From Phoronis australis (taxonomy: Eukaryota > Animalia > Phoronida): DNA of 64,000 nucleotides. Numbering within the stretch: position 1 is the stretch's first letter; each line of letters opens with the position of its first letter. The DNA lies in contig NMRA01000144.1 of assembly GCA_002633005.1 (NCBI GenBank), positions 380,924-444,923 on the forward strand, written 5' to 3'. The notes below the pieces were generated by a model. That model had not been told where the DNA came from, did no database searches, and was given only the letters and a program-made list of their open reading frames with translations. Below are positions 58,901 to 61,900 of this stretch, one piece after another. A program made the translations under genes and the position numbers.

Positions 58901-61900
58901 AATCAGTAACACTACATTAAAAATCCCCAGTTTATCACTGAAACAGTCGAGTTTCTTTGCTGTTTTTGGTCGTGACCTGCTAGACCTGCCTCCCGTTCAG
59001 TAACGCTAGGACCTCGCTAAAAAGCAAGACTTCGCGAGATTACGTGAGATATTGCCGTGTATTTTAAATGAGAACACGTGACTTTGACTAGGTTTTAGCT
59101 AGGTCCTAGCGTAGGTCCTAGCGTCTACTGAACGCACGCCTGGTCCGCCGCCGGGCGGCAGGGTAAGCATCACAATGGGCCGCATCTCAAGCAACACCTA
59201 TGCGACACCATGGAACTAAAATTTGGCTACCTCAAATCCAAAATGGCAAGCTGAGATTTTACCCAACTCGCAAATTGCGAGTTGGGCGTTTCCTTAACGT
59301 CAGACGCTGAAATGTCTGGGGTAACGTTACGGGTTTGGCTAATCAGTGTTGAGTTTGAAAAACAATATCACAGATTTCAACTCAGACATTCTCTAATCAG
59401 AGACCGCTATATCCGACCAGTGCCATCGGGGTGGCAGATTTCATGTTGAGTATCAGGACATCAGGTGGTAAGACAGTGCCACCATCTGGACTGGTCCCAG
59501 TAGAGATAGTGATGCTCCTTATAGTTGCTTCATACACCGGAAGCATTTCAACAAATTATGCCTCACACTGATTAAAACATCAAAGTCACATTCAGGGACA
59601 CCTTAGGGAGGCCAACAAGGTCTTTAACTCCTTCCAATTCGAGCACATACTCCCATAATCAAACTTTTTGTCGAGAGCAGTCCTTCATTCAGTTGCCCAA
59701 ATTAATGTTGTAAATGTCGATGACAGTCTCGGCTGTGGTGTCTCTATGTTGTGATGTCCTTTTCTTTTACAACATTGGTCTTGGCCTGGTGCGACACCTG
59801 ACGCCAGAAGAGCCCAGCAGAGGTCACACTACTACCACACGACCTGTCACCTGTGAAGACCATGTGACGAGATCGTCTGGGCCTTCTGGAGTTCGCTGCC
59901 GCAGTGTGGACGTAATGTGAGTACCCTCTAGAATTACTCCAACACTACATGAATAGGTTGAACCTGTTTGGCTGTGCCCAGCCAATTAATACAACATTAA
60001 CAACTGGCCATAGCAGTGCGGGGAAATCGAAACCAAAAAAGAGGAAAATTCCAAGCCCTGTAACGTGACTTTGATGGTTTAATCAGTGCGAAGCATAATT
60101 CGAGTGCTGAAAAGTTTCCGGCGTAAGAAGACCCTATGCCAAGATGGGAGTATCAGTGTCTCTACTGCTAAAAGAGACAGGGGCACTGTCTATCACTATA
60201 GAGCTATCACTGGCATCAGGCGGTATTGTATGACCCTACAGCCCTAGTTTAACTAAGTAATCACTGAATCAGTGAATGGGGAAGAATGTTGGTGCACTTG
60301 CACTTGCAGTTGAGTAAAATAATATAAAGGCCCAGCTTAATAGCCTACAGCAATTGCTCTTTGGTATGTTGTAGATATGCTTCCGGTGAATTATATGAGC
60401 CTCTGTTAGCTACTCGCTAACAGGCAATTGCCTATTAGCTGAATGGTTAGCACGCTTGCCGGTTTTATGGGGGTCACTGGTTCGATTCCCGAGTCAGGTG
60501 ATCTCGGCTATTACTACAAATGGCGTAGTCGCCAAACGGATGATCTACCGATGAAGCACTGCCAACTAGTACCCACGGACCTTGGGAAGGCGCGTGTGGA
60601 AGGTTCCAGGAGTCAAGGACCTGTATGAGAGACTACCTTGTGTTCACCTGTGTTGTGGTGGTAAGTTTAGTAAAGGTACAAAGGGACGTTGATGACCTGT
60701 ATGCGAGACATCCTGATGTTCACCTTACTGGTCGCGTGCCCGTTCCGTAGGGAAGGGGGAAATGTTGTAGATGTGCTTCCGGTGAATTATATGAGCCTCT
60801 GTTAGCTACTCGCTAACGGGCAATTGCCTATAGTATTAGCTGAATGGTTAGCACGCTTGCCAGTTTTATGGGGGTCGCTGGTTCGATTCCCGAGTCGGGT
60901 GATCTCGGCTATTACTACAGGTAGACTGATTAGGATGCCGAGCTTTGCAACGAGATGGTAGGCCTACTGGTTCGAAACTTACGTGATTTCAACATGTTCA
61001 AGTCAAGACAAGTACTGAAGTGAAGACGAAGTCTGAACTTGAAGTAGGCCTAGTCACCAGGGCCGGGGTAGCTAGCATTTTTTTAACCAGGCCGAAGGTC
61101 AGAAGTTGCGGACCTACCGGCGAACTTTGAAAGCTGAAGTTCCCGCCCTTCGTGTACGTGCTGCCGGGAACCAGCCGTGCATTTGCCGTGTTGTTAAACA
61201 TTAAAATGTCAAATATGTGCACAAAGACTATTAAATGTCATATCAACAGCATTTATTTTTATCAAATACAAACAATAATTCATTGAAATACAATCAGTTT
61301 CAAGTAACGCCAATTAAAGACAAGTATAAGTGGTGGCATTTTGGAAACGAACATTTGACTGACAAGACCGCAATGGCTCACCTTTGGCCTATTTAAAGAT
61401 TGAGGTCATGAAGTCACATCACCTAGCGAGCGCGGTAAAAATTGGAGCGTGCGCAGTATAAAAATGGTGAGTTCACGATTTTGGGAACTGAAATAGGGAC
61501 TGCTCGAAGAAAAAGTTTCATAACGGGAATATTTGTTCGAGTTGGAAGGACTTAAACACATCAACAACCTCCTAAGATGTTCCTCTATGCGCAAAAGGTA
61601 TTTATAACAACGTGATTTTGATGGTTTAGTCGGTGCGAGGCATAATTCGCCGAAAAGCTTCCGGCGTACAGAGCGCCTATAGCCTCTGCATCGCCTCTGA
61701 CCGGTTCGGGCCAACAGAGGCGATGGTCATTGCCTACTAGCTGGCCAGTTAGACACTTGCTACACAACCGCAGGTACACCACAGCAGACGTTAGCGATAT
61801 CACATTACACTTTTTCAACCAGAACGTGAAATGAATCATGAGAAGTTTAGAAATCAATTTCTGAGTTTCAAAATAGAACTTCGTTACCTTTCATGCTTGA

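Follow-up and report, generated by a model that had tools for sequence, protein, structure and literature searches.

A new Helenus family with a tRNA-type promoter layout in its LTRs and a palindrome at the predicted transcription start

The window analysed here, a stretch of DNA of 64 kb, carries on its forward strand a 553-bp non-coding element (60367-60919) that has the outline of an LTR retrotransposon and that contains, within each LTR, the paired A and B boxes of a tRNA-type promoter. The locus thus raises the question of what kind of element this is, and whether the boxes are used by Pol III in its propagation or are an idle remnant. The reading that we favour, with a probability of about 0.78, is that the element is an aged copy of a multi-copy family of the Helenus kind, which is likely transcribed by Pol III from the boxes in its LTRs and likely mobilised by proteins that a tRNA-Ser-primed Gypsy element supplies. 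The evidence comes from the anatomy of the window copy, from RNA reads that derive from its relatives, from a comparison of the LTR with a genuine tRNA gene nearby, and from a palindrome situated at the predicted start of transcription.

The element, its copies and its surroundings

The initial annotation had described LTRs of 152 and 157 bp with TG...CA ends, a GGTA target-site duplication, a primer-binding site, a purine tract and a non-coding middle of 244 bp. It also placed A and B boxes with starts 43 nt apart in each LTR, separated by a TTTT. All of these features are present as described, at the following positions.

60363-60366, + strand: left target-site duplication, GGTA, from sequence comparison, an exact match with the right copy
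60367-60518, + strand: 5' LTR, 152 bp, TG...CA; reads stop sharply at 60367
60405-60421, + strand: hairpin with a 6-bp stem and a 5-nt loop, in the centroid structure of 60400-60446
60416-60439, + strand: 24-nt imperfect palindrome centred on 60427/60428, 11 of 12 pairs
60436-60446, + strand: A box of the 5' LTR
60463-60466, + strand: T4 run between the boxes of the 5' LTR, a candidate leaky Pol III stop
60479-60489, + strand: B box of the 5' LTR
60519-60762, + strand: internal region, non-coding, 244 bp
60521-60531, + strand: primer-binding site, complementary to the 3' end of tRNA-Ser, 11 nt in this copy
60749-60762, + strand: polypurine tract, 14 nt, adjoining the 3' LTR
60763-60919, + strand: 3' LTR, 157 bp, TG...CA
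60837-60847, + strand: A box of the 3' LTR
60864-60867, + strand: T4 run of the 3' LTR
60880-60890, + strand: B box of the 3' LTR
60920-60923, + strand: right target-site duplication, GGTA

The two LTRs are the same at 147 of 152 aligned bases and are further distinguished by a single 5-nt indel. CpG changes account for four of the five substitutions between them, a pattern that the ageing of a methylated copy would produce. The primer-binding site begins 2 nt past the 5' LTR, and its sequence occurs once in the window against an expectation of 0.01. The internal region contains a 32-nt repeat (60618-60649 versus 60694-60725, 84%). The element holds no ATG-started frame longer than 61 codons, and the internal frame that was scanned gave no Pfam match. 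No second copy was found elsewhere in the 64-kb window.

Evidence for further copies comes from RNA. Three RNA-seq runs (X7, X8 and X9, under one species label) and a contig set were aligned on 60100-61200, affording 744, 683 and 656 reads and 6 contigs; some of these fall on a neighbouring repeat, and about one-fifth of each read run was examined. Read depth is 0 over 60100-60358 and then climbs within the element, where both LTRs and the middle are covered, and the majority of reads are less than 99% alike to the window copy. The loose ends of reads at 60763 and 60919 agree with one another at a level of 0.41-0.52 in five of six rows, and such low agreement at the exact LTR borders indicates many different flanks. 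In addition, 4-mers to the left and right of the LTR loose ends match each other, GAAG in X7 and X8 and GCCC in X9, from which we infer two further independent 4-bp duplications by pairing left and right sides that no single read spans. The element thus belongs to an interspersed multi-copy family with sharp ends.

The reads also place the window copy within its family. At 60532, 132 of 133 reads differ from the window copy, and the match to tRNA-Ser there is 14 nt long instead of 11; together with the CpG changes between the LTRs, this longer primer match identifies the window copy as an ageing family member. The 5-nt insertion of its 3' LTR is absent from most reads (72/108, 70/100 and 157/186). 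Among the variants listed (41 of 208), a common one inside the B box hits a free position (60487/60888) and none falls on the T4 run. Run X9 contains one diverged LTR copy that makes up about half of its LTR reads and that carries a 3-nt insertion seen in 79/205 reads, against 0/144 and 0/152 in X7 and X8; it represents either an insertion confined to one individual or a host transcript confined to one tissue.

The surrounding sequence holds several other features. A second abundant repeat starts at ~61076 (61062-61200 onward), with loose ends that match the reverse complement near 61480, as they would for a MITE with terminal inverted repeats, and pieces related to it lie at 59471-59702, 60056-60191 and 61478-61681. 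A Nup93 gene of ~20 exons occupies 19260-43299 (+), within which two blocks, both of two exons, occur as tandem duplicates (~27680-30590 and ~31613-35345, 92-99% identical), reflecting a recent duplication, alternative exons or haplotype mis-assembly. The Nup93 exons group with Lingula, at 62-68% identity, in three quick trees that included no phoronid and no second brachiopod (SH-aLRT 88, 94 and 85, none of them starred), and their grouping with two nemerteans is rejected (p-AU 0.00135). Given this identity the host is not L. anatina; it is likely to be a brachiopod or a phoronid. Two exons on the - strand (53801-54061 and 48946-49260), which we take to be CFAP36-like, encode an ARL2-binding BART domain, and the element is located upstream of the higher one at a distance of ~6 kb; a scan of 57 frames of at least 62 aa in 43300-64000 gave no further exon with Pfam support. 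A THAP domain fragment (9799-10125, -) situated between long inverted arms (955-2033 and 12133-13066) is possibly, with those arms, a decayed DNA transposon.

The tRNA-type boxes and the proposed Pol III cycle

In order to be informative about transcription, the boxes must first be distinguished from chance motifs. Pairs of A and B boxes of comparable quality occur three times in the window, namely in both LTRs and in a tRNA-Gly gene at 62135-62207, and not once in 60 simulated 64-kb sequences; the box pair is therefore not a product of chance. The tRNA-Gly(TCC) gene lies on the + strand 1.2 kb from the element, is followed by T5, and served as a control. Aligned to this gene without gaps, the LTR matches at 33 of 56 bases, a score reached by 2 of 20,000 shuffles, 28 being the highest score at any other site of the window. 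The bulk of the match lies in the boxes, and the stretch between them is weakly tRNA-like (13/32; 764 of 20,000 shuffles).

A tRNA search of the LTR came back blank, with no tRNA called by either ARAGORN or Rfam. The tRNA-like part does not form a cloverleaf, so that the cloverleaf and acceptor stem of a functional tRNA gene are missing. Given these blank results and the 33/56 match to the window's tRNA-Gly, the resemblance to tRNA-Tyr that the initial annotation had noted is unsupported as an indication of origin. Boxes derived from 5S rRNA were also considered, and Rfam gave no 5S match up to E 5 and E 10. The boxes sit 69 nt inside paired LTRs that are accompanied by a primer site and a purine tract. 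A tRNA-derived SINE (SINE2) was rejected because it needs a 5' tRNA head, a LINE-like tail and no LTRs, whereas the boxes here lie within paired LTRs. As read from its sequence, the LTR has the layout of a tRNA-type promoter without being a tRNA gene, and no isotype can be assigned to it.

The favoured reading can be set out as a cycle. Pol III would start near 60428, driven by the tRNA-type boxes of the 5' LTR, would pass the first T4 in some of the rounds and would stop at the T4 of the 3' LTR. The resulting RNA would be ~440 nt long, with a repeat of ~38 nt at each end. tRNA-Ser would then prime the first strand and the purine tract the second, and the integrase of a Gypsy helper would create the 4-bp duplication.

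A difficulty for this cycle, raised at the outset, is that the TTTT between the boxes could terminate Pol III early. The run is indeed present; the concern is weaker than feared, since two oyster families share it and since an LTR element needs a stop that is inside the LTR and downstream of the start. In these families, Helenus-1_CVi and Helenus-6_SaGl, a T4 lies at the same place between the boxes; molluscan LTRs were aligned by Kojima to tRNA-Lys-TTT, and the fish families have no T4 past the B box (PMC10886601). The arrangement is thus not unique to the element. Where Pol III would stop is uncertain, given that the host tRNA-Gly ends in T5 and that fission-yeast Pol III shows negligible termination at T4 in the accessible part of PMC4982682. 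The T4 of the 5' LTR is the only one on the + strand of the element besides its twin in the 3' LTR. This depletion was rejected as a mark of Pol III selection because A4 is likewise absent, so that the effect is not strand-specific, and because the GC content of the element is 49% against 39% for the window.

The alternative that survives best, although we judge it unlikely, is that the element is an ordinary TRIM in which the boxes are relics, for example of an old SINE insertion, and are now idle, with Pol II transcribing the element either from the LTR itself or as read-through of host genes. The RNA data lend it some weight. Reads fall on both strands, and 62-67% of the aligned reads continue into unlike sequence, which indicates that most of the RNA signal stems from copies embedded in other transcripts; the loss of the tRNA fold is also in keeping with relic boxes. 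No pile-up of read starts was seen near the A box in the three runs, which as fragmented RNA-seq of unspecified selection are a weak test for uncapped Pol III RNA. Relics would not be expected to retain both boxes at an unchanged spacing of 43 nt when the stretch separating them has diverged, as is the case here, and the + strand of the element offers neither a TATA nor an AATAAA or ATTAAA for a Pol II transcript. Moreover, selective conservation of the boxes across families has been reported by Kojima (PMC10886601).

Less probable again is a promoter that is real but does not mobilise the element, in which Pol III starts at the boxes, stops at the first T4 and yields an RNA of 35-40 nt, with the full-length template supplied by Pol II or by occasional read-through. 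A run of four Ts is able to terminate vertebrate Pol III, and that of the 5' LTR comes 27 nt past the start of the A box. The recurrence of a T4 at the same place in two published oyster families argues against such an early stop, as does the lack of any further T4 in the element, owing to which read-through of one weak site gives exactly the RNA that is needed. That the boxes are chance motifs inside a normal TRIM LTR is highly improbable, since the missing ARAGORN and Rfam calls that speak for it are outweighed by the empty simulations and by the standing of the LTR as the window's best ungapped match to a real tRNA gene.

Pol III transcription followed by tRNA-Ser-primed mobilisation, the reading that we prefer, also makes demands on the primer and on a helper. 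Matched against a human tRNA-Ser template (from the accessible part of PMC3299991), the primer-binding site is complementary over 11 nt in the window copy and over 14 nt in reads of other copies, which supports the primer named in the initial annotation. Metagenome contigs were scanned for the LTR end followed by the primer site, and two loci, L001 and L002, were recovered. Both are autonomous Gypsy elements with a PNMA-like gag that contains a zinc knuckle, a protease, RT, RNase H and an integrase, and in both the last LTR bases are ACTACA, after which a longer stretch matches the same 3' end of tRNA-Ser. Autonomous Gypsy elements that combine this LTR end with the Ser primer site, as sought by the initial annotation, therefore exist, but those recovered are from another host. 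They have in common with the element the tRNA-Ser primer site and the last six LTR bases; they differ from it in being coding and in their ~1.5 kb LTR, which has no A and B box pair, and no other similarity was detected at E up to 0.5. Being otherwise unlike the element and from another host, they show only that such helpers exist, and by analogy a Gypsy helper for the element is plausible. Seven matches to the primer motif in viral contigs, which come without LTR similarity or tRNAs, look like chance and were set aside.

A palindrome at the predicted start

The 24-nt palindrome has its centre 8 nt ahead of the A box, and with its right arm it extends over the first four nucleotides of that box. 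Its score is reached by 0 of 20,000 shuffles of the upstream part of the LTR, and among 63,976 centres in the window just two others outside microsatellite reach 11/12; the tRNA-Gly gene scores 5. If 10 of 11 pairs are demanded, with G-T pairs allowed and the centre confined to a band of four positions, the chance of such a match in the window is ~0.003. Folding gives z = -4.4 for 60412-60443 and z = -3.4 for nearly the whole LTR. The upstream hairpin competes with the palindrome for the left arm, and in the 3' LTR the 5-nt insertion displaces the outer arm. By way of comparison, the presumed LTR of L002 contains no comparable palindrome by Watson-Crick pairs (best 8/12 among the six top centres of 2934).

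The position of the palindrome, centred on the predicted start, suggests that it may act as an RNA signal. The right arm would form the 5' end of the RNA, and the left arm would be present only in the copy from the 3' LTR. By base pairing, the palindrome could thereby join the ends of a single RNA, or link one RNA to another, and so aid strand transfer across the short repeat.

Published consensus LTRs of bivalve, vertebrate, nemertean, Lingula and ctenophore families and of Ajax (PMC10886601 Data S1) were scored by eye, related species not being independent in the resulting counts. A module of this kind, 7-8 nt before the A box, was seen in 33 of 51 bivalve families, in all 18 vertebrate families (15 clean, two with a one-base bulge and one partial) and in all three nemertean families, as well as in both Ajax LTRs, where the A-box-like motif comes next. 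It was seen in 0/3 Lingula and 0/1 ctenophore families, and the 18 bivalve families that do not have it keep the tRNA-like 5' end. Judged in the same way, the sequence of the palindrome varies while its pairing is kept, with centres that include AATT, TTAA, GTAC, GATC, ATAT, CATG, TGCA and ACGT. Frequent G-T pairs in the published palindromes point to pairing in the + strand RNA. Several of these palindromes have odd-length centres, so that a self-complementary loop would not suit all families. Symmetry of this kind could also be restored in the absence of selection, by fold-back in the course of reverse transcription. The wasp LTRs Helenus-3_NVit and Helenus-1_ToGe (PMC10886601), by eye, contain a different, longer-looped hairpin that likewise ends at the tRNA-like 5' end.

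The main text of PMC10886601 nowhere mentions palindrome, hairpin, inverted or dimer, and our literature search, whose scope ended short of subscription papers and Repbase notes, found no palindrome described for Helenus. According to the accessible part of PMC5371799, Ty3 dimerises via 12-nt palindromes, which are located in its primer tRNA. The palindrome described here goes beyond the published description of Helenus and seems unreported; it is solid in the window element, and in the relatives it rests on the by-eye count.

A broader interpretation, which we put forward tentatively and at somewhat less than even odds, is that the palindrome is a conserved but sequence-variable RNA signal of a single old lineage of Pol III TRIMs in animals, spanning fish, coelacanth, bivalves, nemerteans, the likely lophophorate host of the window and Ajax, and that it pairs RNA ends or two RNAs for the jump during reverse transcription. 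If true, this would speak against the idea that such elements arose independently in each host group, and Ajax would then be a derivative of Helenus. Kojima's discussion asks how a short-repeat Pol III RNA is packaged and undergoes strand transfer through a helper with which it shares no LTR, and a palindrome that seems to be kept across phyla despite sequence change provides something specific to measure for that question. It is also a marker by which animal Helenus can be sorted into two types and a single origin tested against repeated ones.

Relation to Helenus, Ajax and Cassandra

Helenus (TRIMp3) is the name given by Kojima (2024, Biology 13:119; PMC10886601) to TRIMs with tRNA-derived sequence in their LTRs. 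The class is known from six animal phyla, Gypsy elements have been proposed as its helpers, and its animal members have 4-bp duplications and lengths of 314-1263 bp (PMC10886601). This was the only relevant paper that we found for TRIMp3; a 2026 meeting report, in its accessible part, merely cites it (PMC12859917).

The initial annotation had brought up the name Helenus, and rightly so, as the element fits the definition of Kojima (PMC10886601). It is a TRIM of less than 1000 bp with two LTRs and no coding capacity, has tRNA-derived A and B boxes inside the LTRs, and possesses both priming sites, one complementary to the 3' end of a tRNA and the other a polypurine tract. Its 4-bp target-site duplication, the animal form, is exact in the window copy, and the diverse flanks in the RNA reads mark it as interspersed and multi-copy. 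Published Helenus families are also the same as the element in having no working tRNA fold and a primer site that is not complementary to their own tRNA-like part.

No published family in the supplement of PMC10886601 matched the element, whether by eye, as vertebrate, bivalve, brachiopod and nemertean families were compared, or by motif, as were the fungal and wasp families. The primer-site motif of the element has 0 occurrences in the supplement, where FASTA line breaks could mask a motif within a record but not at the start of a record, which is where primer sites lie. Published Ser primers are of the Ser-TGA and Ser-GCT types only (PMC10886601), whereas the tRNA-Ser site of the element is of a third type. 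Lingula anatina is the only lophophorate in Kojima 2024, and its three LTRs are without the palindrome. The element represents, on these sequence comparisons, a new Helenus family, by which a two-year-old class with predicted Pol III promoters gains one further host lineage and one further primer type. Helenus would be known from a seventh animal phylum should the host prove to be a phoronid.

Among published families, the mytilid Helenus-2_MyGa, Helenus-2_MoPh and Helenus-2_LimFor are like the element in their tRNA-Ser primer, in an internal part of 226-268 bp (versus 244), in LTRs of 141-156 bp and in a palindrome at the A box, and the first nine bases of Helenus-2_MyGa are identical to those of the element. 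They are unlike it in using another Ser isoacceptor and in an internal part that, by eye and with no computed alignment, has no clear likeness.

Ajax, the nemertean TRIMp3 of 5S type, resembles the element in that, by eye, a palindrome is followed by an A-box-like motif in both of its LTRs. It is distinguished by 5S-derived boxes, a 5-bp duplication and a tRNA-Leu primer.

Cassandra, the 5S TRIM of plants, is more distant, with 5S boxes, a Met primer and a plant host, and its transcription has been demonstrated, whereas that of the element is a prediction. What Cassandra has in common with the element, as far as PMC10886601 and the accessible part of PMC10853983 describe it, is a Pol III promoter inside the LTR. 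The Cassandra transcript, in the same sources, runs from a start in the 5' LTR to an end in the 3' LTR and carries a short repeat, and may be likened to the ~440-nt RNA predicted for the element.
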